A DNA stretch of 64,000 nt from a virus (Duplodnaviria; Caudoviricetes). A program made the translations under genes and the position numbers. The notes under the pieces were generated by a model. That model ran no database searches and was not told the DNA's origin. It saw only the letters and a program-made list of their open reading frames with translations. The stretch covers positions 2,575-66,574 of the IMG/VR virus record IMGVR_UViG_3300031853_000035, one strand, 5' to 3'. The first letter of the stretch is position 1; each line of letters starts with the position of its first letter. This document shows, piece after piece, positions 6,101 through 42,900 of the stretch.

Positions 6101-6243
6101 AGAAAGGAGGTGGACCGGGTGGCCGGCATAAATCACGTCCGTCTGGCGTTGCTAACCAGACATCAGCACGTCTTAATGCCACATCTATAGAGCACATCAC
6201 CCATAAGGTCTTGGAGTAATTCAGGGCCTTATGTCTTTTTTTT
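6101..6243 (+). ncRNA. Short promoter-to-terminator transcript beginning AGAAAGGAGG (sRNA or 23-aa peptide)
   Basis: Flanked by the promoter motif and a cataaggtct/agggccttatg hairpin + T-tract; internal gtctgg/ccagac hairpin. Confidence 0.45.
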
Positions 6244-8404: not shown

Positions 8405-9151
8405 ATGGGGGAGAATTCAAAAGCGTTTCTTGACGCGCTTAAAGGCATGGACGTTACCATGCGAGAAGACATTGCAAACGATATGCCTTGGGTTTACGAT
8501 AATGCCAGAACGCCGGCCGCATCTTTTAGAGTCGCTAGAAAGACCGGAAAACGTTATATTTCCTGTGCCAATGCCGTTAAGTGGGCGCTTAAGGCTATCG
8601 GTATTCCAAGCGCCTCCCTTAGTTGGTGGGGCGACATGGGAGTCATTCACTGGAGCAGCGCAAATGCTGAAAAAGAAGCTAAGAAATTCTTTAACATCAT
8701 CAAGATCGGCAATAAGACGCAAAAGCAGTGCATCGCAGAAGGACTTATCTTACCTGGCGATGTGCTTATGTTTAACGACTATAGGCACACCAACGCGGTA
8801 TATTCTAAGACCAAATCGTTCGATGCCGGTCATGCGTACTGCAACGGCGAAGCTTTTACTAAATGGATCGGCAAGATGGTGTGTGCTAACGATAAGGTTT
8901 CTTATATTTTTAGGCTAAAAGAACTCTACTACCGGGTACAGATCGAGGCTGATTCTAAGAAGGCTACTGCTTACGCAACGGCAAAGAAAGCTAAAGAGGC
9001 GCTAGGACTTGAGACCTTCACCGAATACATGAGTGATAAGAGGTGGCATGTGTTCTGTGGATCGTTTGACAGCGAGGATAATGCTCTCAAACGCCGTGAC
9101 GTTGTGCGCAGCGTCTACCCGAAAGCCTTTGTTAAAGAGGTCCTCGCATAA
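8405..9151 (+). CDS. Second cell-wall hydrolase: papain-like (NlpC/P60/CHAP-type) domain + SPOR
   Basis: ISCANAVKWAL (Cys), RHTNAV (His), FDAG; C-terminal YYRVQ...HVFCGSF SPOR-like domain. Confidence 0.65.
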   Translation: MGENSKAFLDALKGMDVTMREDIANDMPWVYDNARTPAASFRVARKTGKRYISCANAVKWALKAIGIPSASLSWWGDMGVIHWSSANAEKEAKKFFNIIKIGNKTQKQCIAEGLILPGDVLMFNDYRHTNAVYSKTKSFDAGHAYCNGEAFTKWIGKMVCANDKVSYIFRLKELYYRVQIEADSKKATAYATAKKAKEALGLETFTEYMSDKRWHVFCGSFDSEDNALKRRDVVRSVYPKAFVKEVLA

Positions 9152-9168
9152 ATTTCATGTTCTATAAT
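9144..9168 (+). promoter_or_regulatory. Phage-specific promoter motif, copy 2
   Basis: TCGCA taaatttCAtgttc TATAAT. Confidence 0.8.
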
Positions 9169-9293
9169 GAAGAGAAGGTAAACATATAGAACCTTAAGAC
9201 TACAACGATGTATAGGCATAGACCGAATACTAGTAGGTGGGCGCAAACCCCACTCTATATGTATAAGCAGTAGCGTGGCTCGCCTTCTCTTTC
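9169..9293 (+). ncRNA. Candidate structured small RNA (about 125 nt)
   Basis: gaagagaagg/ccttctcttt closing stem, acatataga/tctatatgt stem, gtggg-cgcaaac-cccac hairpin; no RBS-led ORF. Confidence 0.65.
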
Positions 9294-9295
9294 AT

Positions 9296-9328
9296 GCTCG
9301 TGAATAATTCACGGGCTTTATTTTTTTC
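9296..9328 (+). terminator. Intrinsic terminator
   Basis: gctcgtgaa-taa-ttcacgggc + T-tract. Confidence 0.8.
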
Positions 9329-9358
9329 TCGAACGTATGAACGACTAGACGTTATTTT

Positions 9359-9383
9359 TCGCAAATATTACAGCGTCTATAAT
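9359..9383 (+). promoter_or_regulatory. Phage-specific promoter motif, copy 3
   Basis: TCGCA aatattaCAgcgtc TATAAT. Confidence 0.8.
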
Positions 9384-9401
9384 AGAAAGGAGGTATCTAA
9401 A

Positions 9402-11154: not shown

Positions 11155-11179
11155 TCGCAGACTTTTCATCTCCTATAAT
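11155..11179 (+). promoter_or_regulatory. Phage-specific promoter motif, copy 4
   Basis: TCGCA gacttttCAtctcc TATAAT. Confidence 0.8.
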
Positions 11180-11212
11180 GAAACTATTGATGCTTTATTA
11201 AGGAGGATTAAC

Positions 11213-11431
11213 ATGGAAGAGAAGCTTAAAAGGATTGAAGAAGTTGAGCGGAAACTTAGAAGATTTGAGCGGAAAGGTTATAAACTTATGGCTGAACTTA
11301 GAGCAATTGAAGCCTATGACTGTAGCCTTTCTGCCAAATGGGCAGATGATTCGTTCGCTCGGACAATCAAATGGAGCAACGGCACCATTAATACTGCTCG
11401 TGAATGGGCATTGAAGGAAATTGAAAAATGA
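11213..11431 (+). CDS. 72-aa coiled-coil hypothetical protein
   Basis: AAGGAGG RBS, ATG at 11213. Confidence 0.75.
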   Translation: MEEKLKRIEEVERKLRRFERKGYKLMAELRAIEAYDCSLSAKWADDSFARTIKWSNGTINTAREWALKEIEK

Positions 11432-11435
11432 TGGT

Positions 11436-11476
11436 AAGCTCCTGGGACATAAAAATCTCAGGGGCTTTATATTTTT
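11436..11476 (+). terminator. Intrinsic terminator
   Basis: aagctcctggga...tctcaggggctt + T-rich tail. Confidence 0.75.
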
Positions 11477-11492
11477 CGTCAGTTTTGCTAAA

Positions 11493-11521
11493 TTGTATAC
11501 TGTTCTGGCTTATGATATACT
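11493..11521 (+). promoter_or_regulatory. Host sigma-A-type promoter
   Basis: TTGTAT-17 nt-TATACT with TGn extended -10. Confidence 0.6.
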
Positions 11522-11551
11522 TGCCTCTATCAAAATGAAGGAGGTTACTAT

Positions 11552-11818
11552 ATGTCAAGGTATACTAATGAACAGATCAAAGAAGCTGTTGAACATTTAA
11601 CAAATGACCCATTAGGCTGTTGCATAAGACCTGAAAAAATAGATTATTTTGATCAGAGTGTACAGATTAGAGTTAAGTCGCGAAGCGGTAAAGAGTCACA
11701 TATTTTACATTACGAATTTGAGGAAGATGGGCATTTAAATGTTTGGGGTGGATACAGTAGTGAAAGTAGTAAAATGAAATTTGCACATCAATTAGTAAAC
11801 TTTCTTCAAGCTCTCTAA
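11552..11818 (+). CDS. 88-aa hypothetical protein (moron-like)
   Basis: AAGGAGG RBS; has its own host-type promoter and a gctctc/gagggc terminator. Confidence 0.75.
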   Translation: MSRYTNEQIKEAVEHLTNDPLGCCIRPEKIDYFDQSVQIRVKSRSGKESHILHYEFEEDGHLNVWGGYSSESSKMKFAHQLVNFLQAL

Positions 11819-11835
11819 ATAGAGGGCTTTTTTTT

Positions 11836-11860
11836 TCGCAAATAATACATGCCATATAAC
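11836..11860 (+). promoter_or_regulatory. Phage-specific promoter motif, copy 5
   Basis: TCGCA aataataCAtgcca TATAAC. Confidence 0.75.
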
Positions 11861-11894
11861 GACAGAGAAGTTCACAAAAGAAAGGAGATACATT

Positions 11895-12176
11895 ATGAAT
11901 GCATATGTCGTAACCTGCTTGATGAGTGCATTTACCGATGAGGTAGCGGACTATAAAGATCGTAAGATTCTTGGCGCGTTTGGAACGAGGAGTCGAGCAA
12001 TGACATTTATCCTTGGGATAGATGCAGTTGAAGTAGAATTCCCGATAGCAACGAAGGTCAAGATACTTGCGTCTTCTGACATTACTTTAAAGGATGCTGT
12101 GCGTATCGGACGAGGATTGGACGAAGAAACAGAGTGGTATTTTGAATTTAACATTGAAAAGGTTCCTGTCAAATAA
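11895..12176 (+). CDS. 93-aa hypothetical protein
   Basis: GAAAGGAG RBS. Confidence 0.75.
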   Translation: MNAYVVTCLMSAFTDEVADYKDRKILGAFGTRSRAMTFILGIDAVEVEFPIATKVKILASSDITLKDAVRIGRGLDEETEWYFEFNIEKVPVK

Positions 12177-12181
12177 AAGTT

Positions 12182-12214
12182 ACCCTCGGGAGAAATCCTG
12201 AGGGTTTTTATTTT
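12182..12214 (+). terminator. Intrinsic terminator
   Basis: accctcggg-agaaat-cctgagggt + T-tract. Confidence 0.8.
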
Positions 12215-12266
12215 TGTTGTATACTAATGTTCGTTCCTACAATTTTATTTTCAAAGGAGGTTAAAC

Positions 12267-12673
12267 ATGGGAACAAACGTTAGAGTAAAGCTCTCAAAAA
12301 GGGGCGCTATTATTTAAGCAAAGAAAGGAGACTGGAGTTAACGCACTTTTGCTTGCAGTATTATGAGTGGAAAAGGGAGCTTACCGCAATAAATATGCTT
12401 CCTGTATGCTCATATCAGGAGGTTAAAGGTAGTATTCCTAGTGATACAACTGCGAAAACGGCACTGAGAGACTTATATTTTAAGGAAAAGTGCGAAATGG
12501 TAGAAAGGTCCGCAAGAGAATGTGATCCGGACATCGGATCGTTTATATTTGAAGCGGTAACTACTGGAAAGAGTTTTTCATGCTTTGAAGCTTCTGGAAT
12601 ACCTTGCGGAAGAGACATGTTTTATGACAGACTGCGCAAATTCTATTGGATCCTCGATAAGTATCGCAAATAA
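12267..12673 (+). pseudogene. Frameshifted gene (ArpU/RinA-like regulator type), broken at an A5G4 run near 12296..12304
   Basis: RBS-led frame MGTNVRVKLSK stops at 12317; the -1 frame continues YYLSKERRLELTHFCLQYYEWK...IPCGRDMFYDRLRKFYWIL. Confidence 0.65.
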
Positions 12674-12688
12674 TTCATCTTCTATAAT
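12664..12688 (+). promoter_or_regulatory. Phage-specific promoter motif, copy 6
   Basis: TCGCA aataattCAtcttc TATAAT. Confidence 0.8.
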
Positions 12689-12809
12689 GAGAATAAATTA
12701 AGAAAGGAGGTATGATCTGTTAGGTAACTGACAGATGCCTGAAATCTAAAATTTAATAACATAACCCCATACGGAATGACCTGTGATATTTCATGGGTCA
12801 TTTCTTTTT
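12689..12809 (+). ncRNA. Short transcript with a perfect SD but only a 3-codon ORF (M-I-C-stop)
   Basis: AGAAAGGAGGT-ATG ATC TGT TAG; atctgt/acagat hairpin; aatgacc...ggtcatt terminator. Confidence 0.45.
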
Positions 12810-12834
12810 TCGCAGATTTTTCATATCCTATAAT
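12810..12834 (+). promoter_or_regulatory. Phage-specific promoter motif, copy 7
   Basis: TCGCA gatttttCAtatcc TATAAT. Confidence 0.8.
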
Positions 12835-13070
12835 GAAAAGAAGCTTAATGCCACCGGAAGGGGAGTATGCTTAAGGAGCATTGAGTAAAAAGATTTTACT
12901 GTTTGAGTGAATTGACACATTTCAAAACTTAAAGGTGAGCTTAGACGTCAACAGTGTAATAAACTGCGGCGGATCCGAGAACACCCGGCGGGTAAATATA
13001 AAATGACGAATTATTAACGTCAACCTGAGAGCTGGGGCCAATCGCCGGTAAATCATATCTTTTTTATTTT
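12835..13070 (+). ncRNA. Candidate structured RNA (about 230 nt)
   Basis: No RBS-led ORF; stems aatgc/gcatt, agtaaaa/ttttact, cagt/actg, ccggcg/cgccgg, gacg/cgtc; 5' gaaaaga pairs with 3' tcttttt. Confidence 0.6.
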
Positions 13071-13071
13071 T

Positions 13072-13096
13072 TCGCAAATAAATCATCTCCTATAAT
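13072..13096 (+). promoter_or_regulatory. Phage-specific promoter motif, copy 8
   Basis: TCGCA aataaatCAtctcc TATAAT. Confidence 0.8.
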
Positions 13097-13132
13097 GATA
13101 CAATTATTGATTTTTCAATAGGAGGAAACGAA

Positions 13133-13339
13133 ATGAAAAATGACTTAATCGGAAGAGGTATGGCGCTTGTTGTTGTACTCATGATTGTGGCGTGTATTAT
13201 GCATCCGTCGCTCTGGATTGGAGCGTTTGGTGCGATACTCAACATTTTAATCTGGGTGCTGTTAGCAAAGATCGTCTGCCGGCTTGTGTTTAAGAAGTCG
13301 ATCAGAGAATTGATTCTTGGCGAAAAAGACGACGATTGA
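13133..13339 (+). CDS. 68-aa membrane protein
   Basis: Two hydrophobic segments; AGGAGG RBS. Confidence 0.75.
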   Translation: MKNDLIGRGMALVVVLMIVACIMHPSLWIGAFGAILNILIWVLLAKIVCRLVFKKSIRELILGEKDDD

Positions 13340-13379
13340 TCTAATGCGAGGTACGTGTAATCGCTGTAATTACATGGCC

Positions 13380-13404
13380 TCGCAGTTTTTTCATATCCTC
13401 TAAT
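13380..13404 (+). promoter_or_regulatory. Phage-specific promoter motif, copy 9 (overlaps the 3' arm of a hairpin)
   Basis: TCGCA gttttttCAtatcc TCTAAT; gcgagg...cctcgc hairpin. Confidence 0.7.
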
Positions 13405-13439
13405 GAAAAGAAACTAACCAATATTCAAAGGAGGATATT

Positions 13440-13673
13440 ATGAATAGAATAACTAAAACTAGCATTGGTATTGTGATTTGCATGATGATCGGAGCTGTTG
13501 GAATAGCTGCTGTGACATTGGCATTGAGCATGGCTTGTGTGTATACAAGTCTGTTCGATGGGTGGAGCAGCATGTCCATTACACTGCTCTGGCTCGGACT
13601 GGATATTTTTATGGTATCAGCGCCGTTTGGTAATTGGATTTATAAACTGACTGGAAAGGAGGAGCAGAAGTAA
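13440..13673 (+). CDS. 77-aa membrane protein
   Basis: Two hydrophobic segments; AAGGAGG RBS. Confidence 0.75.
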   Translation: MNRITKTSIGIVICMMIGAVGIAAVTLALSMACVYTSLFDGWSSMSITLLWLGLDIFMVSAPFGNWIYKLTGKEEQK

Positions 13674-13717
13674 GTTCAACGAGGCATCGCGTATTATACG
13701 TGGTGTCTCGGCTTTTC

Positions 13718-13742
13718 TCGCAGATTTTTCATCTCCTATAAT
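13718..13742 (+). promoter_or_regulatory. Phage-specific promoter motif, copy 10
   Basis: TCGCA gatttttCAtctcc TATAAT. Confidence 0.8.
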
Positions 13743-13782
13743 GAACACTAATTTTATATTTTCCATTATAGGAGGTACAAAA

Positions 13783-13959
13783 ATGAGAAACTGGTTAAAA
13801 ACAAAAGCAACTGAAATGACCATCGGAGATACACTTAAGTATACCGGATTGATCACGATCGTTGCCTACGGACCGGTTCTTGTTGCTATGTATTGGAGTA
13901 GCATCAAGAGCAAGTGCGGAGAAATGATCGGCATCATAAAGGAAAAGCTTGGGAGGTGA
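13783..13959 (+). CDS. 58-aa single-helix membrane protein
   Basis: AGGAGGT RBS, ATG at 13783. Confidence 0.75.
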   Translation: MRNWLKTKATEMTIGDTLKYTGLITIVAYGPVLVAMYWSSIKSKCGEMIGIIKEKLGR

Positions 13960-13962
13960 TCC

Positions 13963-14028
13963 ATGGGCACATTAGGGATCATTTTAATCATAATCGGATG
14001 TGTACTTGTTATTATGAGTAACGATTGA
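13963..14028 (+). CDS. 21-aa hydrophobic micropeptide MGTLGIILIIIGCVLVIMSND
   Basis: GGGAGGTGA RBS; ends just before a terminator. Confidence 0.6.
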   Translation: MGTLGIILIIIGCVLVIMSND

Positions 14029-14039
14029 TGTTCACTTAA

Positions 14040-14078
14040 GACCATGCATGAATGGAAAGTTCACATGGTCTTTTTTTT
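14040..14078 (+). terminator. Intrinsic terminator
   Basis: gaccatg...catggtc + T8. Confidence 0.8.
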
Positions 14079-14126
14079 CTTCACGAGCTCTCAAATAGAG
14101 CAAGTCAGTAACGAAGTTATCTGAGT

Positions 14127-14151
14127 TCGCAGATAAATCATGGGCTTTAAT
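14127..14151 (+). promoter_or_regulatory. Phage-specific promoter motif, copy 11
   Basis: TCGCA gataaatCAtgggc TTTAAT. Confidence 0.7.
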
Positions 14152-14187
14152 GGTACACATAGAACCATTTAAAGAAAGGAGAAACGT

Positions 14188-18472: not shown

Positions 18473-18905
18473 GTGGATATTTGGCTGTGAAAACTTTTGT
18501 AACTGTTTTTGCGGAAGGCCCAAAAACAGTGAATTTGTATGGTGCCCTGATATGAAAACTTGTGAAGAGCTAAATATTTGTGCCATATCAATGGACCCCG
18601 AGCGTCCGGATAGCAAGGATCTTATAAATAGGATTCTTAAGACTATAGAGGAGTGGCGTAGTGAATGCATAAATGTAGGCGACGAACTGGCTCCGGATGG
18701 TGATATTTTCAGCGATGATGCTTTCGTTGTTACAAATACGGATGGCGAGAGTATTTATGGTATAACAAAAAGTGGGATGATGCGCGTCATATCTCGCGTG
18801 TATATTTCTTTGGAGTCCTATAAGAAGACAGGCCGACATTTTGATGAGGTTGAAGAGTTTCTTAAAAAGATAAAGACTTCTTCCGAGAAAGGATATCGCA
18901 ATTAA
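18465..18905 (+). CDS. 146-aa Cys-containing hypothetical protein
   Basis: GAGGT RBS; overlapping arrangement. Confidence 0.55.
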   Translation: MRKWIFGCENFCNCFCGRPKNSEFVWCPDMKTCEELNICAISMDPERPDSKDLINRILKTIEEWRSECINVGDELAPDGDIFSDDAFVVTNTDGESIYGITKSGMMRVISRVYISLESYKKTGRHFDEVEEFLKKIKTSSEKGYRN

Positions 18906-18920
18906 ATCAGATGCTTTAAT
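18896..18920 (+). promoter_or_regulatory. Phage-specific promoter motif, copy 12
   Basis: TCGCA attaaatCAgatgc TTTAAT. Confidence 0.7.
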
Positions 18921-18958
18921 GAAGAATGATATATTTCATTAAAGAAAGGAGATTTACG

Positions 18959-19321
18959 ATGAATAACGAAGAGAAAACGATTCCTATGTGGAAACTGAAA
19001 CTCCAGTGTAAGGCAAAACTTGCAAAGGAAAAGGTTAAGGAAGCTGGAAGTAAGGCATGCAAAGTCATGATCGAGCATCCTGTCGAAGCTGCTTCAATCG
19101 TAACCGGCGTATTCGGAATTGCCAAACTTGGCATCAAAGAAAAACGCAGGAGAGATGAGAAGCGAGTGATTGACTGCAGGGTGTACGACAGACGGTCGGA
19201 CACTTACTCCTGGGCTAAAAGACCTTTAAAGCCTGCAGAGAAGCTTGAAATGGAGAGAAGGTACCGCAACGGAGAACTGAAAAGTGAAGTTTTAAAGGAT
19301 CTTGGAATTTTAAAATATTGA
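18959..19321 (+). CDS. 120-aa hypothetical protein
   Basis: AGAAAGGAG RBS, ATG at 18959. Confidence 0.75.
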   Translation: MNNEEKTIPMWKLKLQCKAKLAKEKVKEAGSKACKVMIEHPVEAASIVTGVFGIAKLGIKEKRRRDEKRVIDCRVYDRRSDTYSWAKRPLKPAEKLEMERRYRNGELKSEVLKDLGILKY

Positions 19322-19328
19322 TTTCGGT

Positions 19329-19371
19329 GACCTCATGTAGTTCGAAAGGATTACATGGGGTCGTTGTTTTT
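19329..19371 (+). terminator. Terminator-like hairpin with a TTCGAAAG loop
   Basis: gacctcatgtag-ttcgaaag-gattacatggggtc. Confidence 0.65.
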
Positions 19372-19382
19372 GGGAGTGGGTA

Positions 19383-19583
19383 ATGATGATAAGCAATGTA
19401 CCGTGTCCTTGCGAAGGGTGCACAAAAAGAAACGTTGGATGCCATGGCTCTTGCGAAGAGTATAAGGATTTTCAAGGGGAGCTTGAGCGGATCAGAGACA
19501 ACATCTACGCCGAGCATAAGCATGATAGATATTTTAAGGCTGCGATTATGAGATCTGTTAAGCGAGGTGGCAGTAATAAATGA
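19383..19583 (+). CDS. Small Cys-rich protein
   Basis: PCPCEGCTKRNVGCHGSCEEY. Confidence 0.7.
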   Translation: MMISNVPCPCEGCTKRNVGCHGSCEEYKDFQGELERIRDNIYAEHKHDRYFKAAIMRSVKRGGSNK

Positions 19584-19810
19584 ATAGCAAAAGCATAGAC
19601 TTATATCTTAGAGACATTTGCAATGATCAGATTGCTTTGCAGATCGTTGAAACTCTTGGCACAGATTTTGACTACGATAATGAGCCAGTTGTGACGATCA
19701 ATTTTGATATTTCAGAAAAGGAGGAACCGGCCATTGAATTTGAGGATCAACCGTCAGTTGATGGGAAAAGTATTTACTGGGCTATCCCTCATAGGGGTTG
19801 GCGTAAGTAA
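19580..19810 (+). CDS. 76-aa hypothetical protein
   Basis: GAGGTGG RBS; overlapping stop/start. Confidence 0.5.
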   Translation: MNSKSIDLYLRDICNDQIALQIVETLGTDFDYDNEPVVTINFDISEKEEPAIEFEDQPSVDGKSIYWAIPHRGWRK

Positions 19811-20495
19811 TGTTATCACGGCTAGAAGAACGCTTAAGTATCAGGAGATACTAAATGGATATTCTGGAAATCACGTTAAGGCTGCTGTAAAAACTTATTA
19901 TCCGTCGTTTATCGCGGTTGGGCTTACATGTGGATCAATACTGCTGGCAGAGGGAATTAATCTTAAAGAGATTGCCGCAGTTACTGGCGTTGTTACATAT
20001 CTTACAAGTCAGCGGGATAGAACAATGGACGCTATAGAAAAATTTGGCGGAGAGGAACTGCGCGAAAAGGTTGAAACCGCCGTTCCAAAAGATCAAAAGA
20101 TGGAAGCGGAAATTCGTTATATTTGCAAGGCCGGTCCTTCAGTTGAAGAGACCGGAAGAGGAGATCTACTTTGCTACGATGCATATGCTGGCAGATGGTT
20201 TAGAAGCTGCGAGACGGCTGTTAACAAAGCCATAAAAGATCTTAACGACAAGTTTGCTAGGGGAGAGTATTTGTCGCTTAATGATTTTCATGAGCTTCTC
20301 GGACTTGAGCTTACACACTTTGGGCATACTTTCGGATGGGCAGCAAATCCGGACTATTATGATTGCCCGATCGAGTTTGATGTAACAATACTTGACGAGT
20401 ACAAATCCAAAAATCCGAAAGGGCAGCTTGAGACACTTGATGAGCCTGTGCTTATCATCGATTACCTTGTTTACCCAATGGAATGCTATATGTAG
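19734..20495 (+). CDS. DUF6353-like protein (paralog 1)
   Basis: AGGAGG + TTG at 19734; N-terminal hydrophobic helix; YLSLNDFHELLGL...FGW. Confidence 0.7.
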   Translation: MNLRINRQLMGKVFTGLSLIGVGVSNVITARRTLKYQEILNGYSGNHVKAAVKTYYPSFIAVGLTCGSILLAEGINLKEIAAVTGVVTYLTSQRDRTMDAIEKFGGEELREKVETAVPKDQKMEAEIRYICKAGPSVEETGRGDLLCYDAYAGRWFRSCETAVNKAIKDLNDKFARGEYLSLNDFHELLGLELTHFGHTFGWAANPDYYDCPIEFDVTILDEYKSKNPKGQLETLDEPVLIIDYLVYPMECYM

Positions 20496-20502
20496 GTGTG
20501 AG

Positions 20503-20694
20503 ATGGATAACAAAGAGCTGCTTGAAGCGATCATAGCAGATATTGAAAACGTTTATGTTGAAATTCCTGGATCACTTGGTATGAGCGTTAAGGAGCTTCA
20601 GGGATGGATGAACGGATATGCTGTTTGCCATGCGACCATTCTTGAGCTTCTTAAGAGAAGGGAGGAGAGTTTGCGTGACCCGATTTATAACTAG
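20503..20694 (+). CDS. 63-aa hypothetical protein
   Basis: AGGTG RBS, ATG at 20503. Confidence 0.6.
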   Translation: MDNKELLEAIIADIENVYVEIPGSLGMSVKELQGWMNGYAVCHATILELLKRREESLRDPIYN

Positions 20695-20796
20695 CGCGTT
20701 ACTACTTATATTTTTGGTTTCGACTTGTTGTTTGGACTCGGATACCGGATGGATCTGGGTCTTTTTTATTTGGATTATCTCCGGAGGTTTATCTGT

Positions 20797-20985
20797 ATGG
20801 CACTTTACAAGTACGATGGCCCAGTTACAAGCTTTGGAAGGGTCATTGCCGAGCGTTGGAGCGGGAAAACGCAGGCTACTTCGTATGCCAAAGCCAAAAA
20901 CAACCTGATATTTCAGTTTAAAAGATCAAATAAGCTGCTTCCAAGTTCTAGAATAGAGCTTCCTGGCTCATTTAGCATCATCTAA
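20797..20985 (+). CDS. 62-aa hypothetical protein
   Basis: GGAGGT RBS; MALYKYDGPVTSFG...AKNNLIFQFK. Confidence 0.7.
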   Translation: MALYKYDGPVTSFGRVIAERWSGKTQATSYAKAKNNLIFQFKRSNKLLPSSRIELPGSFSII

Positions 20986-20986
20986 T

Positions 20987-21011
20987 TCGCAAATATTTCT
21001 AGCCTTATAGT
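20987..21011 (+). promoter_or_regulatory. Phage-specific promoter motif, copy 13
   Basis: TCGCA aatatttCTagcct TATAGT. Confidence 0.7.
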
Positions 21012-21049
21012 GAAACTAAAGTATAAATAATTAATAAGGAGATACAACT

Positions 21050-21271
21050 ATGAAGGCAAAAGCAACACTTATTGCACCCGTTAACTATGACGAGATGGTA
21101 AGAGTAAAGCACTTTCTTATTAGCCGAAACAAATCGTTTAGAACGATTCATGTTCCGGTAAGTGAAGAAGAGTCGCTTCCTCTTATCATGACGGACATGG
21201 ATATTTTGGAGAAAGTTGTGTTTAGACTTACATTTAAGACAAAATCCGAACGAATTAGTGTATTTGGTTGA
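21050..21271 (+). CDS. 73-aa hypothetical protein
   Basis: AAGGAG RBS; lies between a promoter and a terminator. Confidence 0.75.
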   Translation: MKAKATLIAPVNYDEMVRVKHFLISRNKSFRTIHVPVSEEESLPLIMTDMDILEKVVFRLTFKTKSERISVFG

Positions 21272-21275
21272 TGAA

Positions 21276-21310
21276 AAAGACCTCGGGAAAATTTCTCGGG
21301 GTCATTTTTT
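21276..21310 (+). terminator. Intrinsic terminator, 28-mer identical to 14637..14664
   Basis: aaagacctcgggaaaatttctcggggtc + T-tract. Confidence 0.8.
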
Positions 21311-21333
21311 CGCAACTTTTGAAAGGAGATACT

Positions 21334-21540
21334 ATGGCACATGAAATATTATACGCTGACGGTGCTAAGGTTCCGTGCAGTGACCCAACCATTGAAATTC
21401 CAGTAAAACAATACTGCGATGCCATTATGGCTATTCAAAAGCTTGATGATATTCGTAGAGTCTGCTGGTGCGGCGGTGCAAGCAACAGTCCATCGTCTAT
21501 ATTAGAGGCCGTTAGAGCAATCGTTAAGAGAGAATCCTAA
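21334..21540 (+). CDS. 68-aa hypothetical protein
   Basis: GAAAGGAG RBS, ATG at 21334. Confidence 0.65.
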   Translation: MAHEILYADGAKVPCSDPTIEIPVKQYCDAIMAIQKLDDIRRVCWCGGASNSPSSILEAVRAIVKRES

Positions 21541-21546
21541 CAAAAT

Positions 21547-21571
21547 TCGCAGAAAAAACAACCGCTATAAT
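21547..21571 (+). promoter_or_regulatory. Phage-specific promoter motif, copy 14
   Basis: TCGCA gaaaaaaCAaccgc TATAAT. Confidence 0.8.
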
Positions 21572-21641
21572 AGAGAACCAGATTTCGTATTGATTTCTAG
21601 TTCTTTTTATTTTTGTAGGCTTTCAAGAAAGGAGATCAAAA

Positions 21642-22406
21642 ATGAAAGCGAACTTTATTAAAGCAATTGGCAAGAGTATCGTAAAGCACGAGCGGATCAT
21701 TCTGACAGGACTTACAATCGTGGCAGAAGGCGTCGCACTCTACCAGGCCATCAAACAGGGACCAAAATTTAAAGAGGTTAAGGAAAAAGTAGAGGCACAG
21801 GAAATCACAAAGAAGGACGCGGCAAAGGAGCTGGCGATCCCTGCTGCTAAAATTGGAGTTCCGTTCCTGGTATCTGCCGGATCAGCGGTTTTAAACCACA
21901 AGAAGGCGTCTGATACGATTGCGTCTCTTGCGAACCTGTACACAATTACAAGAACCGTATCAGATGAGTACAAATCGCAGGTTGAAAAGGAAGTTGACGC
22001 GGAAACGTTAAATAAGATTAACGAGGCTACTGGTCAGGCGATGGTGGATCGCACCGTAAAGTTTGGATCGGCAGCTAGGGTCTATCATACCGGTCATGGT
22101 GATACGAAATTCTATGATAAATTCTCAGATCGATACTTCTATAGCGACGCAAACTACCTGCAGAGCGTTGTAAACGACTTTAACGAGAGGCTTAATGACT
22201 CGAAAGAATACTCTGAGAACAATCCGGTGCTGCTTAGCGAATTATATTCCGAGTGGGGTCTTCCCTACGTTGATACGTTCGAGCATTTCATGTGGGATCA
22301 TGATACAGGACTCATCAGAATGGAGATTACCCCGGCAAAAGGCGATGACAACCAGTTCTACGGAGTCATAGGCTTTAAGAGAGAGCCTAGAGTGATCCGT
22401 TGGTAA
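21642..22406 (+). CDS. DUF6353-like protein (paralog 2)
   Basis: ILTGLTIVAEGVALYQAIK...LLSELYSEWGL. Confidence 0.75.
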   Translation: MKANFIKAIGKSIVKHERIILTGLTIVAEGVALYQAIKQGPKFKEVKEKVEAQEITKKDAAKELAIPAAKIGVPFLVSAGSAVLNHKKASDTIASLANLYTITRTVSDEYKSQVEKEVDAETLNKINEATGQAMVDRTVKFGSAARVYHTGHGDTKFYDKFSDRYFYSDANYLQSVVNDFNERLNDSKEYSENNPVLLSELYSEWGLPYVDTFEHFMWDHDTGLIRMEITPAKGDDNQFYGVIGFKREPRVIRW

Positions 22407-22415
22407 GGAGAGATT

Positions 22416-22583
22416 ATGGATATTTCGAAAATGGAAGTAATGTTTGGCGATTACTGCAAGAAATGCAAGCATTTTGCTAAGGACGGGGCCGAGGAGCCTT
22501 GCAATGAATGTCTTGAAACGTGGTACAGGGACGGAACCAGAGTCCCTGTAAAATACGAATCGCAGAAAAATCAGGCAGTATAA
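22416..22583 (+). CDS. 55-aa Cys-rich protein
   Basis: YCKKCKHF...PCNECL; AAGGAG RBS; its stop codon lies inside the TATAAT of the next promoter. Confidence 0.7.
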   Translation: MDISKMEVMFGDYCKKCKHFAKDGAEEPCNECLETWYRDGTRVPVKYESQKNQAV

Positions 22584-22584
22584 T
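22560..22584 (+). promoter_or_regulatory. Phage-specific promoter motif, copy 15
   Basis: TCGCA gaaaaatCAggcag TATAAT. Confidence 0.8.
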
Positions 22585-22623
22585 GAAACAATTAATTGCC
22601 AAACAAAGTAAAGGAGAATAATT

Positions 22624-34322: not shown

Positions 34323-34351
34323 TTGACACATTGCTTGTGGATGTATATACT
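34323..34351 (+). promoter_or_regulatory. Near-consensus host sigma-A promoter
   Basis: TTGACA-17 nt-TATACT. Confidence 0.75.
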
Positions 34352-34638: not shown

Positions 34639-34663
34639 TCGCAAAAAAAACAACTCCTATAAT
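34639..34663 (+). promoter_or_regulatory. Phage-specific promoter motif, copy 16 (upstream of the RNAP operon)
   Basis: TCGCA aaaaaaaCAactcc TATAAT. Confidence 0.8.
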
Positions 34664-34667
34664 AGAG

Positions 34668-34713
34668 AGAGAAGGGAGAACCGAATTTTATTGGTTTTTT
34701 TCCTTCTCTTTTT
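34668..34713 (+). terminator. Promoter-proximal hairpin + T-tract (attenuator-like)
   Basis: agagaagggagaacc...ggtttttttccttctct followed by TTTT. Confidence 0.55.
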
Positions 34714-34732
34714 GTTTTTAAAGGAGGTTTTT

Positions 34733-35059
34733 ATGGGACTTGAAAGTAATTTTCAAAGAAAGCTTAAAGCTGAGATCAAGGAACGTTATCCGGGATGCTA
34801 TGTTCTAAAAAACGATCCAACTTATATTCAGGGAATCCCAGATCTTACAATCCTCTATAAAGATACTTGGGCAGCGCTCGAAGTTAAAAAAGACAAAGCC
34901 ACTGCTATGTCAGCAATGAAAGGCAAAAGCGGTGGAAGACCAAATCAGCCATTACACGTCGCTAGGATGAATGAGATGTCCTATGCGGCGTTTATTTATC
35001 CAGAAAACAAGGAGGATATTTTTAATGAGCTTGATAGGAAATTCGGCGTATCGAGGTGA
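34733..35059 (+). CDS. VRR-NUC domain nuclease
   Basis: LESNFQ...GIPDLTIL...ALEVKK...NQ. Confidence 0.8.
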   Translation: MGLESNFQRKLKAEIKERYPGCYVLKNDPTYIQGIPDLTILYKDTWAALEVKKDKATAMSAMKGKSGGRPNQPLHVARMNEMSYAAFIYPENKEDIFNELDRKFGVSR

Positions 35060-35720
35060 GCATGCAACGTTCAGCCCAAGCACTGTGTCATGGATTCACT
35101 ATAGCGATGAACAGTTTATGGATGCTCTTAAGAATAAATATAGAGCACAGATAGGAACTGAGATTCATGAATACGCTGCTATTCAGATAACGCTTGGTCA
35201 GAAGTGTTCATCTGTTAGAGAGATGGCCAAAGGGATTAAGACCTTTATATTTAGAAAGTATTATACAGATAAATATGGTCTTTCCGAACTTGGTAGAACT
35301 TTGCTTCAGAACATGAAATATATTCCAAATGAAGTATATGGAACGCTGAAGGCATACATTAATGATAGTATTGCTTACTTTATGGTTCCTGAGGAATGCG
35401 AGGGTGTTACAGATTACTCTAAAGACTTCTTTGGAACATGCGACGCATTATATTTTGAATCTAAGTCAAAGACGCTTAGAATCTTTGATCTTAAAACTGG
35501 GTCTAGGCCGGCTAAGATAGAGCAGGTATTTATTTATGCCGCACTTTATTGTCTACGAAACAAGGTTGACCCTTATGATATTTCGTTTGATCTTAGGGTT
35601 TACCAAAACGAAGAAGTAATTATAGCAGATCAGAACCCGGATCTTGTAAGGCAGTTTATGGATACGATTATCAGGTTTGACGCTATGGTCAGGAAGCATA
35701 ATAAAGGAGGTGCTATATGA
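35025..35720 (+). CDS. PD-(D/E)XK exonuclease (Cas4/RecB-like, DUF2800-like)
   Basis: HATFSPS, GTEIHE, FGTCDAL, IFDLKTG, QVFIYAALY. Confidence 0.75.
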   Translation: MSLIGNSAYRGEHATFSPSTVSWIHYSDEQFMDALKNKYRAQIGTEIHEYAAIQITLGQKCSSVREMAKGIKTFIFRKYYTDKYGLSELGRTLLQNMKYIPNEVYGTLKAYINDSIAYFMVPEECEGVTDYSKDFFGTCDALYFESKSKTLRIFDLKTGSRPAKIEQVFIYAALYCLRNKVDPYDISFDLRVYQNEEVIIADQNPDLVRQFMDTIIRFDAMVRKHNKGGAI

Positions 35721-38700
35721 TCGATCGTGAAGCTCTTCTTTATTTTGTTGATGACGATGAAGATTATATTATGCATTATGGCGTTGGCTGGGATGAAAAC
35801 CCGCCAGGAAGAGGATCTGGTAGATATCCGCATGGATCTGGAGAATTACCTTATCAGCGAAGTGTTGATTTTTATGAACGTGTGCAGTTCCTTAAAGCTA
35901 AGTATCCCGGAATTACTGAACTTGAACTTGCAGAAAGACTTGGCGTTTACAATCGAAGCGGAGTCAATAGAGGAAAGCCGTCTACTACCGAGTTCCGTAA
36001 GAAGCTCTCTGCTGCTACGCAGCTTAGAAAAGCAGCACTTATATCTGAGGCCCAGTCTTTAAAAGAGACGGGCATGTCAAATGTTGATATTGGCAAGCAG
36101 ATGGGTGTTAATGAGTCAGTCGTAAGAAGCTGGTTGTCTGAAGGCCGGTCCGATAGAGCAAATGCATCTATGAAAACGTCCGAGGTTCTTAAAGACTTTG
36201 TCGATAGAAATAAGTATGTTGATATTGGTCCCGGAACAAACTATGCATTTGGTGTAAGTGAAGGCCGGTTTGACACTGCGGTTCATCTTCTTGAAGAGCA
36301 GGGCTATAAAAAGCAGTTCCTTCAGATTGATCAAATGGGTACTGATCATAAAACAACGCTTACGGTTCTTACGAAACCTGATGTTGATTATGCTGAGCTT
36401 AGCGAGAACCGGTTTGATATTCGCTCGCCATTAGTTGCTAATAAGGTCATTGATTCAAAAGGTGACGTTACAGCACTTGGCGTGTCTACAGAGCTTCCTA
36501 GTGTTAGTTCTGACAGAATTATGGTTAATTATGATTCACCAAAGGATGGCCTTGTAGAACTTAGACGAGGCGTAGATGACATTTCTCTTGGAAAAAAGAA
36601 CTATGCTCAGGTTCGAATTGCTGTGGACGGCAGCCATTATATTAAGGGAATGGCTGTGTACAGCGACGACATGCCAAAAGGAGTTGACATTATCTTCAAC
36701 ACCAATAAAAAAGAAGGAACACCATTATATTCTAATGATCCCGATGCCAAGCAGGTGTTAAAACCGATGAAAACAATTAAAGATAGAGACGGTAAAGTAA
36801 TTGGTATCGATTGGGACAATCCGTTTGGCGCCTCTATTGACAAAGATTCAGAAATTATGACAACGGTTGGCAAATACATTGGAAAAGATGGTAAAGAGCA
36901 TATTTCAGCAATTAATGTTGTCAGAGAAGAAGGCGACTGGATGAAATGGGACAAAAACCTTGCATCACAGTATCTTTCAAAGCAGCCATTAAAGACTGCA
37001 GAAAGACAGCTTGCTCTTACAGCTGCAGATAAACGATACGAGCTTGACGAAATAAAAGCGCTTGATAATCCTACGGTTAAAAAGAAGCTTTTAATAGCAT
37101 ATGCTGATAAATGTGATGCTCTTGCGGTTGACTTAAAAGCTGCCCCGTTTAGAGATCAGCAAACTCATGTACTGCTTCCGTCTCCAGATCTTAGTGATAA
37201 TGAAATCTATGCCCCAAAATACAAAGATGGAACAAGGGTTGCTCTTGCTAGATATCCGTTTGCCGGTCCGTTTGAGTCTCCTGAGCTTACGGTGAGAAAC
37301 ACAGGATCTCCTGCGCAGAAGATGATACCGATGTCTTCTCCAGATGCCGTTGTTATATCTAAAAAGCGATTGGACCAGATGTCTGGAGCAGACTGTGATG
37401 GCGATACCGCTATTGTTATTCCGCTTAGCGATAAAGTTAAGGTCAGGACGGCAAAAGACACACTCAAAGAGCTTAAAGGATTCGACCCCAAAGAGCAGTA
37501 TGCTGGATATCCTGGGATGCCAATCGCTAAGCATCAGACGCTTCAGACCGAAATGGGCAAGGTTTCGAATCTTATAACTGACATGTATCAGCAGAATGCT
37601 CCAGATTCTGATATTGCTAAGGCGGTCAGACATTCGATGGTTGTTATCGATGCTGAAAAGCATAAGCTTGACTGGAAAAGGTCAGAGAAAGATAACCAGA
37701 TATTGGAGCTTAAGCAGATCTACCAGAACCATGGTGATGGAAAGACCGGAGCATCCACAATTATATCTAGGGCTAGCTCTGACTACTTAGTTGATCAGCG
37801 TAAGGATTGGCGCCCAAGTAAAGGTAGCGAAAAGAGCCCTGCTACCATTGATGAAGAAGGTAATAAATTATATTCTTTAACCGGTGGTACATATAAAGAA
37901 GGTAAGTTAAATCTTAAAGGCGTAAAGCTTACTAGTGGAGACACCGTTAACCTGTCGTACGATAAGGATAATGGATTATATTTTACGAAAAGAGAAGGTA
38001 AGACATCTACAAGAAATTATATTTCAGATGACGACCTTCCAGAACGTCTTCGTGGCCTGTCCATTAAGCAAGGCGGATGGATAAATGTCAACGAGGATAA
38101 GAAGAGTGGGCAATTATATTTTCTCAAGACTGATACAAACACTGGAAAGAAGACCAGGGTGTATGTATCTGACGGCGATCTTCTTGATACCAAGGAAACT
38201 GTTCGTCAACAAAAGAGTACCAAGATGGCTGAGGCTACGGACGCGTATAAATTAACATCCGGAGGCAGTAAGGAGAATCCTGGATATCCTATGGAGAAGG
38301 TGTACGCGGAGTTCGCCAATAATATGAAGGACCTCGCTAGAGAAGCTAGACGGGAGTGGATGCGGACCGGAAACCTTGAGTATCATCCAGAGGCTTATAA
38401 GAAGTATAAGACAGAAGTGGACTCTCTTAACGAAAAACTTCAGCAGGCCCTTGCAAATGCACCATTTGAGAGGCAGGCCCAGCTTATGGCAAACCGGACC
38501 ATGGCTATAAAGAAGTTTGAAAATCCAGACATGTCAAGAGAAGAAGCTAAAAAGAAGCGTGGTCAAGCCATTGTTGCGGCTAGAACCAAACTTGGCAGTA
38601 AAAAGAAACAGATACAGATAACGGACAAAGAGTATGAGGCTATTCGTGCTGGTGCCATATCAGAAAGTAAGCTTACTAAGATCATGGACAACGCAGACCT

Positions 38701-38863
38701 TGATACTCTTAGACAGCAGGCGACACCTAAGGCGAAGAAGACCATCACACCGAGTATGGAGGCCCTGGCTAGGAGCATGGCAGCCACTGGCGCCACTCAG
38801 GCAGAGATAGCTGATCGTCTTGGCATCTCTACTTCTAGTGTATATAGCATTGTTAAAGGTTAA
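35717..38863 (+). CDS. Single-subunit two-barrel RNA polymerase candidate (YonO/cellular RdRP-like) with three HTH motifs
   Basis: AQVRI...IKGMAV, ARYP, MSGADCDGD (DxDGD), MGKVSNL, HSMVVIDAEKH in the RdRP/YonO order; HTHs at both termini. Confidence 0.8.
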   Translation: MIDREALLYFVDDDEDYIMHYGVGWDENPPGRGSGRYPHGSGELPYQRSVDFYERVQFLKAKYPGITELELAERLGVYNRSGVNRGKPSTTEFRKKLSAATQLRKAALISEAQSLKETGMSNVDIGKQMGVNESVVRSWLSEGRSDRANASMKTSEVLKDFVDRNKYVDIGPGTNYAFGVSEGRFDTAVHLLEEQGYKKQFLQIDQMGTDHKTTLTVLTKPDVDYAELSENRFDIRSPLVANKVIDSKGDVTALGVSTELPSVSSDRIMVNYDSPKDGLVELRRGVDDISLGKKNYAQVRIAVDGSHYIKGMAVYSDDMPKGVDIIFNTNKKEGTPLYSNDPDAKQVLKPMKTIKDRDGKVIGIDWDNPFGASIDKDSEIMTTVGKYIGKDGKEHISAINVVREEGDWMKWDKNLASQYLSKQPLKTAERQLALTAADKRYELDEIKALDNPTVKKKLLIAYADKCDALAVDLKAAPFRDQQTHVLLPSPDLSDNEIYAPKYKDGTRVALARYPFAGPFESPELTVRNTGSPAQKMIPMSSPDAVVISKKRLDQMSGADCDGDTAIVIPLSDKVKVRTAKDTLKELKGFDPKEQYAGYPGMPIAKHQTLQTEMGKVSNLITDMYQQNAPDSDIAKAVRHSMVVIDAEKHKLDWKRSEKDNQILELKQIYQNHGDGKTGASTIISRASSDYLVDQRKDWRPSKGSEKSPATIDEEGNKLYSLTGGTYKEGKLNLKGVKLTSGDTVNLSYDKDNGLYFTKREGKTSTRNYISDDDLPERLRGLSIKQGGWINVNEDKKSGQLYFLKTDTNTGKKTRVYVSDGDLLDTKETVRQQKSTKMAEATDAYKLTSGGSKENPGYPMEKVYAEFANNMKDLAREARREWMRTGNLEYHPEAYKKYKTEVDSLNEKLQQALANAPFERQAQLMANRTMAIKKFENPDMSREEAKKKRGQAIVAARTKLGSKKKQIQITDKEYEAIRAGAISESKLTKIMDNADLDTLRQQATPKAKKTITPSMEALARSMAATGATQAEIADRLGISTSSVYSIVKG

Positions 38864-38879: not shown

Positions 38880-39179
38880 ATGGCTGCTTGCATGGCTACA
38901 ACCATTGACAATCCATACAATCCTTTCACTCACTTTGATGAATGGTATGTGTATGATCAGTCGCATGGTTACAATACTTGTGGCCTTGTTGCTTATTTTA
39001 ATGAAGCATCACGCTTTATGGAAGAAGAAGACTATGAGTTTGAGACAAATGAAGCTATCAATAAGCTTTTGGAACTCAATCCGTATAATCTTCACATGAA
39101 AGTGTATGAAAAAGATGCTGACAAGTTCATAGCTTTGGCAAATAAAGCTTATGACGAACAAAAAGATGCAAAACAGTAA
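38880..39179 (+). CDS. 99-aa hypothetical protein
   Basis: GAAAGGAGG RBS; TTIDNPYNPFTHFDEW. Confidence 0.75.
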   Translation: MAACMATTIDNPYNPFTHFDEWYVYDQSHGYNTCGLVAYFNEASRFMEEEDYEFETNEAINKLLELNPYNLHMKVYEKDADKFIALANKAYDEQKDAKQ

Positions 39180-41994: not shown

Positions 41995-42900
41995 ATGGCT
42001 ATTTACTACGAAAGCTATTACGGTGTTTCATCTCTTGGCGATGACTATTTAATGCACCACGGCATCAAAGGTATGAAGTGGGGTGTTAGACGATACCAGA
42101 ATCCTGACGGGTCTCTTACCGGAGCTGGCAGACTTAGATACGGGATAGCGGAAGGTGCTAAGAAAGTCGGGCAGGCTGCGGCAGCAGCAGGCAAAGGCGC
42201 AAAGAAAGCTTATGTGACAGTTGACCGTGCGCTTGGTAAATGGGCGGCCAAACGTGGCGACGCGGCTTCTTTTCAGAAACATTCAAAGAATTTCACGACA
42301 GAAGAAGTGGCCGATATGGTTAAACGCATCAATACGATGCAGTCTATTGATGATCTAAAAAATAGACGTTCTGCTAATAATGCGGCCAGATTTACCAGAA
42401 ACATTCAGACTATTGGTCTTGCTATTAATACTGGCGTTGCTGTTGGTAAAGCGGCAAAAGGCTTCGTCAAATGGGTTGCTAAGGACAAGGATAAAGAGGC
42501 TTGGAAGGCGGCTAGCGAAAAGCAAGAGGCAGCCATCGTTAAAGACGTGCGAGATAGCGTTATGAAGAATGGAGGCAGTGCGGCAGAGGCAAGTAGAGAA
42601 GCTCAGAAAGCGTTGAAAGAATGGCGCAACGCAAAGCCTAGCTCCTCTGATAATAAATCTGGATCATTCTTAGACCGTGATACGAAATTAAAGCAGGTTG
42701 ACAGCATTTATAGCGAACTAAGCAATAAAAAGCGTAGACAAAACGTACCAATAATTCGCTCAAACGTCGTTCTAAAGAAACCAGTCGAGGACATTGCGAC
42801 AAGAACGTACTCATGGTCGACCGATAGCGATAATCGTCGTTCATATATTGATTATATGAAACTAGCTAACAGGAAAAAGAAGAAAGATAGCGATGATTGA
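41995..42900 (+). CDS. Basic protein with HHGIKGMKWGVRR motif (putative internal virion protein)
   Basis: DDYLMHHGIKGMKWGVRRYQNPDGSLT; Lys/Ala-rich. Confidence 0.7.
   Translation: MAIYYESYYGVSSLGDDYLMHHGIKGMKWGVRRYQNPDGSLTGAGRLRYGIAEGAKKVGQAAAAAGKGAKKAYVTVDRALGKWAAKRGDAASFQKHSKNFTTEEVADMVKRINTMQSIDDLKNRRSANNAARFTRNIQTIGLAINTGVAVGKAAKGFVKWVAKDKDKEAWKAASEKQEAAIVKDVRDSVMKNGGSAAEASREAQKALKEWRNAKPSSSDNKSGSFLDRDTKLKQVDSIYSELSNKKRRQNVPIIRSNVVLKKPVEDIATRTYSWSTDSDNRRSYIDYMKLANRKKKKDSDD

Follow-up and report, generated by a model that had tools for sequence, protein, structure and literature searches.

RNA polymerases (RNAPs) in which both barrels of the catalytic core lie in one chain have been described in phages and in eukaryotes. 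YonO of SPbeta, a Firmicutes phage, is a DNA-dependent RNAP with two barrels in a single chain; it transcribes late genes, and how it finds its promoters is an open question (PMC5467207). P23-45 gp64 and P74-26 gp62 (PDB 8f72, 8f5m; PMC10770324) are phage enzymes of the same general kind, ∼590 amino acids long, and P23-45 also has a second, virion RNAP that is fused to the tape measure. The eukaryotic enzymes QDE-1 of Neurospora and plant RDR2 (PDB 2j7n, 7y7s, 7w82) act in RNA silencing, use RNA or single-stranded DNA templates, have no known promoter use and are without helix-turn-helix (HTH) modules. A 64 000-nucleotide stretch of viral DNA, here called the window and corresponding to bases 2575–66574 of the 66 574 bp IMG/VR viral contig IMGVR_UViG_3300031853_000035, which has direct terminal repeats, was analysed. 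The gene at 35717..38863 on the plus strand of the window very probably encodes a single-protein RNAP built on the same catalytic core as the cellular polymerases, and the predicted chain carries HTH modules of its own.

The family to which this gene belongs is already in the literature. The phage '1706 family' was placed among YonO-like proteins by Ruprich-Robert and Thuriaux in 2010 (PMC2919709). Koert et al. (2021; bioRxiv 10.1101/842583) found the same protein in Streptomyces cluster BI, in other actinophages and in a Lactococcus/Faecalibacterium group, described HTHs at both ends and a DxDGD loop, obtained an HHpred match to PF05183 (probability 95.7%), proposed RNA polymerase activity and called the conserved HTH-bearing gene product a signature genetic element of the supercluster. 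With these reports and a PHROGs entry on record, the novelty implied for the polymerase by the initial annotation of the window was too high. The gene is a new copy of an already predicted family, and the additions made here are a putative promoter motif and its covariation with the second HTH (HTH2).

Sequence and predicted fold of the polymerase

All long open reading frames (ORFs) of the window are on the plus strand, and the one at 35717–38863 is unbroken, begins with ATG and encodes 1048 amino acids. Its product matched the profile of PHROG 4291 ('RNA-dependent RNA polymerase') with E = 1.3e-293, over residues 12–737 and a second stretch, far more than chance would give. At least 7997 database clusters matched the polymerase at E ≤ 1e-5; coverage was ≥ 80% of the polymerase in 249/250 matched phage records, and identity was 38–44% over ≥ 85% of it in 249 phage records. 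ORF75 of phage 1706 was 38% identical (E = 5e-120), and this protein, the 'putative RNA polymerase' of Faecalibacterium phage FP_oengus and the actinophage homologs have in common an HTH-core-HTH arrangement and the DxDGD loop. When the DNA around the gene was compared with phage records, no close relative was found, only a match of 56 nt inside the small gene downstream. The window copy differs from its PHROG 4291 relatives in a beta-rich insertion at residues ∼689–835 that is extra relative to members of ∼900 amino acids, in a metal loop that reads DCDGD where the consensus is DFDGD, in a more diverged N-terminal tag and in the presence of an integrase in its phage.

A set of motif strings had been claimed to occur in fixed order, and every one was found in the ORF in the order given: GITELELAERLGV (residues 65–77, first HTH), GMSNVDIGKQMGVNESVVRSW (residues 119–139, second HTH), AQVRIAVDGSHYIKGMAV (residues 297–314), ARYP (residues 511–514), MSGADCDGD (residues 555–563), MGKVSNL (residues 613–619), HSMVVIDAEKH (residues 639–649) and GATQAEIADRLGISTSSVY (residues 1025–1043, C-terminal HTH). 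Conservation was assessed in a family alignment of 42 diverse homologs with 45–77% identity. D559, D561, G562 and D563 were invariant, with a family consensus of GADFDGD that resembles NADFDGD, the metal loop of the beta-prime subunit. Q298, R300 and K310-G311-M312 were also invariant, and from their position the basic residues among them are inferred to be counterparts of the beta-subunit lysines, which contact the NTP and the RNA 3′ end; downstream of the metal loop, M613, G614, N618, L619, D645 and K648 were invariant. The Pfam RdRP model PF05183 matched 22/42 relatives at E ≤ 0.01 (best 1.7e-7) and HTH_23 matched 40/42, while on the window polymerase Pfam reported HTH models only.

One alternative is that the polymerase core is a catalytically dead relic and that the protein works as a DNA-binding regulator or has a purely structural part in the virion. 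This would agree with the names in the databases, as most GenBank records read 'HTH DNA-binding domain protein' (among the matches listed, 40 of the 250 phage records, this name prevailed and 'RNA-dependent RNA polymerase' appeared sometimes) and the homolog of phage 1706 is entered as a 'structural protein'. However, the metal-binding aspartates and the basic residues are invariant over 42 diverse sequences of a family with ∼8000 or more clusters, and invariance across so large a family fits selection for catalysis. A dead relic is considered extremely unlikely.

Sequence searches of the PDB, made both with the polymerase and with the family profile, returned HTH look-alikes only and no polymerase, and a search by fold was therefore needed. 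An AlphaFold model built with the family alignment as input had a predicted local distance difference test score (pLDDT) of 81.9 and a predicted template modelling score (pTM) of 0.70. The top Foldseek matches in the PDB were all two-barrel RNAPs, namely P74-26 gp62, the P23-45 gp64 type, QDE-1 and RDR2 (E ∼1e-7, with the phage gp64/gp62 pair at the top, E = 1.2e-7), followed by P23-45 gp96, gp66 of crAss phage phi14:2 and RNA polymerase II (Pol II). Alignment with VIA-align gave Z 16.6 against maize RDR2 (343 residues, root-mean-square deviation 3.8), Z 16.5 against QDE-1 (373 residues, 4.2), Z 14.6 against P74-26 gp62, a non-virion RNAP of a Thermus phage (363 residues, 4.6), and Z ∼11 against Rpb1 of Pol II over residues ∼465–866. 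QDE-1 and RDR2 were thus the best structural matches, with sequence identity to the window polymerase of 13–17%. The span aligned to the two-barrel RNAPs is residues 260–886, within which the limits of the barrels are approximate. The fold matches accordingly agree with the double-psi beta-barrel fold expected by the initial annotation and, together with the invariant catalytic residues and the RdRP matches of the 22 relatives, support a two-barrel RNAP.

The model and the alignment gave the following map, all on the plus strand. An N-terminal peptide, DYIMHYG...SGRYPHGSGELPYQR (residues 15–47, 35759..35857), is disordered yet conserved and resembles a diverged DUF7211-type tag. A helical part (residues 50–165) then holds HTH1 at residues ∼52–78 (35870..35950; model helices 52–62 and 68–74 and a conserved G-x-T/S-x3-IA-x2-LG block) and HTH2, which is like sigma region 4, at residues ∼117–143 (36065..36145; recognition helix N132-E-S-V-V-R137-S138-W-L). 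A small alpha/beta domain (residues 167–240) precedes the two-barrel core (residues ∼258–670). The first double-psi beta-barrel region, which is beta-like and includes Q298, R300 and K310-G311-M312, occupies residues ∼258–420 (36488..36976) by its invariant columns and the QDE-1/RDR2 alignment; the second, beta-prime-like region lies at residues ∼478–570 (37148..37426), aligns to Rpb1 from ∼465 and contains the metal loop D559-C-D561-G-D563 (nt 37391–37405). A helical region with MGKVSNL and HSMVVIDAEKH, set by invariant columns, follows at residues 606–670 (37532..37726). The insertion (residues ∼689–835, 37781..38221) is strand-rich in the model, profile matches are split around it, and it is missing from relatives of ∼900 amino acids; many homologs of 890–930 amino acids cover just 65–70% of the query. 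The helical C-terminal part ends in HTH3 (residues ∼1012–1047, 38750..38857), which is seen in the model and by Pfam HTH_23.

Two N-terminal HTHs and one C-terminal HTH had been proposed, and all three were recovered. HTH2 matched Pfam Sigma70_r4_2 at residues 119–144 with 27.7 bits (cut-off 25.7), and HTH3 matched HTH_23, among other models, at residues 1022–1047 with 38.3 bits (cut-off 24.6); for HTH1 (residues 65–77) the evidence consisted of a helix-turn-helix in the model and the conserved alignment block. HTH3 was conserved in all relatives examined, and in Lactococcus phage P092 both HTH1 and HTH3 were.

The fold matches also bear on a second alternative, that the enzyme copies RNA, with transcripts of the phage or the host as its templates, in line with the name RNA-dependent RNA polymerase in many database records. 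The closest solved folds are indeed the eukaryotic RNA-dependent enzymes RDR2 and QDE-1, and the PHROG and RefSeq names agree, but homology is the sole source of these names. The genome of the phage consists of DNA, three DNA-binding HTHs are built into the protein, the gene is accompanied by a DNA motif (see below), and the phage relatives that have been characterised, YonO and P23-45 gp64, are DNA-dependent. This alternative is regarded as very improbable.

The initial annotation had likened the protein to YonO, and the comparison stood in part. The YonO motifs RLPWVKG (266), DNDGD (535) and GEYSN (593) agree in order and spacing with QVR..KG (298–311), DCDGD (559) and GKVSN (614) of the window polymerase, as would be expected within one superfamily. 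Membership of the YonO family was not upheld: hhalign of the 42-sequence family profile against one YonO sequence gave a probability of 1.6% over 19 columns, and YonO matches PHROG 8308, not 4291. Because there was no profile alignment and the PHROG differs, the window polymerase family appears, from these comparisons, to be a sister of the YonO family rather than part of it. YonO also lacks HTH modules.

A bipartite motif in the window and in related phages

The pattern TCGCA-N7-CA-N5-TATAAT occurred 15 times in the window with at most one mismatch, all on the plus strand, against 0.17 occurrences expected. The sites, 16 in all and co-oriented, span 6076 to 34665 and stand in the part of the window with the early and replication genes and the polymerase operon; there was none in the structural region, so that the late genes are without the motif; YonO, which transcribes late genes, differs in this respect. 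The motif extends to -TATAAT-GA, and most sites lie after T-runs and 43–65 nt ahead of a ribosome-binding site (RBS) and start codon. These sites, taken as putative phage-type promoters by the motif and all on the plus strand, comprise one copy at 6076..6102, copies starting at 9144 and 9359 (9144..9385), a dense cluster at 11155..14153 that was counted as nine within 3 kb (starts listed at 11155, 11836, 12664, 12810, 13072, 13380, 13718 and 14127), copies starting at 18896, 20987, 21547 and 22560 (18896..22586), and TCGCAAAAAAAACAACTCCTATAATAG at 34639..34665. The last is ∼1.08 kb upstream of the polymerase start and ahead of the nuclease, exonuclease and polymerase genes.

A near-consensus host-type promoter, TTGACA-17-TATACT (34323..34351, plus strand), lies 290 bp ahead of the phage-type promoter of the polymerase operon; it was identified by consensus match, with 11/12 positions agreeing. 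A listed ORF at 34323–34616 starts exactly on the TTG of this promoter, and its true start is therefore probably further in.

Equivalent repeats were present in related phages. Lactococcus phage P092 has nine copies of TTTAwsTTTTACAyACCCTATAATGArA, and in Streptomyces phage Kardashian (60% GC) the form TCGCA-N7-ACA-N5-(TATAAT-like)-GAGA is present 12 times. In several relatives the motif escaped strict patterns, and a position weight matrix was therefore needed; it covered the core from ACA to GA, left out the pentamer and was trained on the window, P092 and Kardashian. Six untrained relatives gave 4–17 core matches on the plus strand and 0–3 on the minus strand: 10 and 0 in the Arthrobacter-type genome G008, 8 and 0 in G010, 9 and 0 in G001, 17 and 0 in G005, 10 and 1 in G002, and 4 and 3 in G006. 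The pentamer TCGCG, TCGCA or TCGTA was found again at the fixed distance in these core matches. In the controls, SPbeta gave one plus-strand and two minus-strand matches and shuffled genomes ∼1–2.

In a further 59 related IMG/VR loci a coding-strand core match was found upstream of the polymerase in 42, the nearest at a median of 930 bp, and the strand count was 64 plus against 1 minus. The reverse test, in which IMG/VR was scanned by the motif alone, found the polymerase in 5/5 complete contigs tested with ≥ 4 matches and in 2/5 of the incomplete contigs (64–85% complete). These data indicate that the putative promoter motif follows the polymerase gene across phages of Actinobacteria and Firmicutes hosts.

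An alternative reading of the motif is that the gene does encode a true polymerase, while the motif is read by the host RNAP with sigma-A; the HTHs would then serve as an activator or anchor, or another phage factor would bind TCGCR, and the polymerase would prime or make non-coding RNA in the replication module. In its downstream half the motif has a perfect -10 hexamer for sigma-A, and the polymerase gene does lie in the replication module beside the primase-polymerase, helicase and nucleases. Enzymes of the QDE-1 type can accept both RNA and single-stranded DNA as templates (PMC9508822). Against recognition by the host, the sites in the window have no -35 hexamer at 16–18 bp and no TG extension, no sigma gene was found among the 34 window proteins scanned, and the pentamer covaries with a helix of the polymerase itself, as set out below. 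The same bipartite architecture is moreover found in phages of Streptomyces, Arthrobacter-type and Firmicutes hosts, which differ in their sigma factors and promoter consensus. This alternative is on balance judged unlikely.

In publications on cluster AU and DJ actinophages, repeats of a similar kind are described as recombination boundary sequences or as regulators of unspecified type, and no paper was found that ties the repeats of these clusters to the polymerase. If the motif is read by the polymerase, they would be promoters of the phage's own enzyme.

Some further features of the sites were noted. The copies at 9144, 12664 and 12810 have no RBS-led ORF within ∼140 nt and may drive non-coding RNAs. 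Between 26376 and 34661 of Kardashian, hairpins (CCCCTACATGGGG) with a T-rich tail stand just ahead of many promoter copies; they resemble terminators that are paired with promoters, and a conserved leader, GAGACCCCTAC, would be common to the transcripts. Strand-biased words such as TTATATTT were considered as a second motif in the window and rejected, since they lie inside genes, their flanks are not conserved and codon usage therefore accounts for them.

The second HTH and the upstream pentamer

The polymerases of 90-odd loci were aligned, and the HTH2 helix (N132 to L140) was compared with the majority pentamer of each locus. Gly for Ser at the residue after the glutamate (E+1) went with T at pentamer position 4 (5/5 vs 3/44; Fisher p = 3e-5), and Asn at the residue after the arginine (R+1) went with A at pentamer position 5 (11/12 vs 10/37; Fisher p = 1e-4), shared ancestry being ignored in both tests. 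Arg137 is missing in three proteins (P092, L035 and L033), and their pentamers are also without CG. A blind prediction was made for phage 1706, in which the HTH2 sequence 'ESSVRN' pointed to TCGCA; positions 4–5 were CA in 8/10 sites. No covariation of HTH1 or HTH3 with variants of the -10-like hexamer was seen by eye. These comparisons, with the match of HTH2 to sigma region 4.2, lend moderate support to the view that HTH2 reads the upstream element.

HTH2 may thus be likened to region 4 of sigma-70 and to HTHs of the LuxR-GerE type, in that it passes the Sigma70_r4_2 cut-off and apparently reads an upstream element whose distance from an AT-rich, -10-like element is constant. It differs from region 4 in being a covalent part of the polymerase chain, in a spacer of 14 bp and not 17, and in recognising what would be TCGCR and not TTGACA. 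P23-45 gp64 resembles the window polymerase in having a promoter motif of its own and a gene near the genome end (PMC10770324), whereas gp64 and P74-26 gp62 are shorter, lack fused HTHs and use a GC-rich promoter; the supplements of that study make no mention of the PHROG 4291 phages.

It is considered likely that the gene product is a single-chain, two-barrel, DNA-dependent RNAP whose promoter is read by its own HTH2 and which carries out early and middle transcription without a sigma factor. The bipartite motif would be the promoter of the polymerase, with HTH2 reading TCGCR (the CG step through Arg137, base 5 through residue 138) and the AT-rich TATAAT serving as the site of DNA melting beside the start site. 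The enzyme would transcribe early and middle genes and would feed back on its own operon. Taken together, the motif and the covariation support promoter recognition without a sigma factor.

Several observations weigh against this interpretation. The window polymerase itself has no Pfam RdRP match at E ≤ 1, and no biochemical study of any member of the PHROG 4291 family was found in the literature. A core match was lacking upstream of the polymerase in 17/59 related loci, and three motif-rich contigs had no polymerase gene, although these are 64–75% complete. In Firmicutes hosts, sigma-A of the host could still make use of the -10-like TATAAT. A single clade may account for the five TCGTA cases, as the counts ignore phylogeny, and the prediction for phage 1706 was only half met, with CG at positions 2–3 in only 1/10 sites. 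The initial proposal that promoters are read by the polymerase's own HTHs has indirect backing, in that the motif follows the gene and the pentamer covaries with HTH2.

Promoter finding by minimal two-barrel polymerases is an open question to which the PHROG 4291 family offers a direct route. It combines a compact enzyme with fused HTHs, a sharp putative promoter in phages of two phyla and natural HTH-promoter variants, from which the residue that reads each base can be predicted, and cultured members exist (Lactococcus phages 1706 and P092 and many SEA-PHAGES isolates).

The N-terminal tag, neighbouring genes and genome ends

Residues 1–49 of the model had pLDDT < 50, and H20, G22, S34, G35, G40 and G42 within them were still invariant; the motif LxHYG...SGRYPWGSG..P.Q was present in all relatives examined. 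One homolog (P0025) matched Pfam DUF7211 with E = 6.6e-13. A second protein of the window, a basic, Lys/Ala-rich product of 301 amino acids (41995..42900, plus strand), has a canonical DUF7211 N-terminal tag (DDYLMHHGIKGMKWGVRRY; PF23847, E = 8.3e-12). Its positional counterpart in phage 1706, orf7, carries the DUF7211 motif and is annotated 'structural protein', the name also given in the depositors' record to orf75, the polymerase homolog. These 'structural protein' labels reportedly come from virion mass spectrometry. No paper on DUF7211 was found. On the strength of the tag and the labels, virion delivery of the polymerase, which would put it in one functional class with N4 vRNAP, crAss gp66 and P23-45 gp96, is given about an even chance. 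The gene at 41995–42900 was also seen to be directly followed by the large terminase gene, a position in which one would look for a small terminase.

Early genes carry the putative promoters, and the polymerase gene is itself downstream of a copy; expression could then be seeded by a host promoter, or the enzyme could come with the virion. More tentatively, the first molecules might arrive from the capsid by way of the DUF7211-like tag, or be made by host RNAP from the TTGACA-17-TATACT promoter at 34323. Since all genes have the same orientation and the polymerase operon borders on the ends, late genes could perhaps be reached by read-through across the genome ends after end-joining.

In its widest form the system would be self-contained: a polymerase delivered from the capsid by a DUF7211-type tag, recognising TCGCR-N6-ACA-N5-TATWAT through HTH2 and transcribing early genes without need of host RNAP in phages of Firmicutes and Actinobacteria. 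The recognition code would then be Arg137 for CG, Asn or Ser at 138 for A or G, and Ser or Gly at 134 for C or T. This fuller proposal is advanced tentatively, as a possibility with somewhat less than an even chance; if true, the enzyme would be the first two-barrel RNAP with built-in promoter recognition.

Upstream of the polymerase are genes for a primase-polymerase of 1416 amino acids, a helicase, an endonuclease and a Cas4-type exonuclease. The primase and DNA polymerase fusion (26862–31112; PHROG 4210, E = 0) is conserved in the same phage supercluster. A search of the neighbouring pair 34691..35720, an endonuclease (34691–35059, plus strand) and a Cas4/PD-(D/E)XK-type exonuclease (34971–35720, plus strand), gave matches to PHROG 93 and PHROG 3953, and the same order is found in Paella, Kardashian and 1706. 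The phage had been called temperate, which is plausible given a tyrosine integrase at 9756–10985 and the classification of one relative as a provirus.

Directly after the polymerase gene lies a gene for an acidic protein of 99 amino acids (38880..39179, plus strand; PHROG 4303, E = 1.4e-26), with its own strong RBS, AAGGAGG, and an invariant TT-DN-NPFT-W-D motif. An ORF at 38863–39099 was rejected as the conserved small gene because it is in the wrong frame; the 56-nt phage match and the PHROG 4303 match both belong to 38880–39179. Homologs of PHROG 4303 lie directly 3′ of the polymerase gene in Paella, P092, Kardashian, 1706 and several uncultured relatives, and the protein is a candidate cofactor or end-associated protein. 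The 1706 ORF75 family occupies the same right-end site as the window polymerase, after the exonuclease gene and with the same small gene downstream.

The order exonuclease, polymerase, small gene and genome end is common to Arthrobacter phage Paella, Streptomyces phage Kardashian and Lactococcus phages P092 and 1706. The small gene ends 52–187 bp from the genome end in linear relatives, and many IMG/VR contigs stop 300–450 bp past the polymerase gene. From this conserved synteny it follows that at the right physical end no large gene comes after the polymerase, and by comparison with the linear relatives the 446 bp non-coding stretch at 39180–39625, which has long inverted repeats as well as a G-run near 39365 (GGGGGAGGGGGGGG), probably holds the physical genome ends (cos or pac). 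Beyond it are genes for an HNH endonuclease, a virion protein, the DUF7211 protein, the large terminase and the structural proteins. In relatives that infect either of the two host phyla, no further gene was seen between the PHROG 4303 gene and the genome end.

Two sets of paralogs were also noted in the window. Major tail protein paralogs of PHROG 2645 are encoded at 44932–45594 and 49628–50572, the first of them in an unusual position between the terminase and portal genes. The early region holds three paralogs of PHROG 2152 (19704–20495, 21642–22406 and 24205–25167), two of which have a phage-type promoter ahead.

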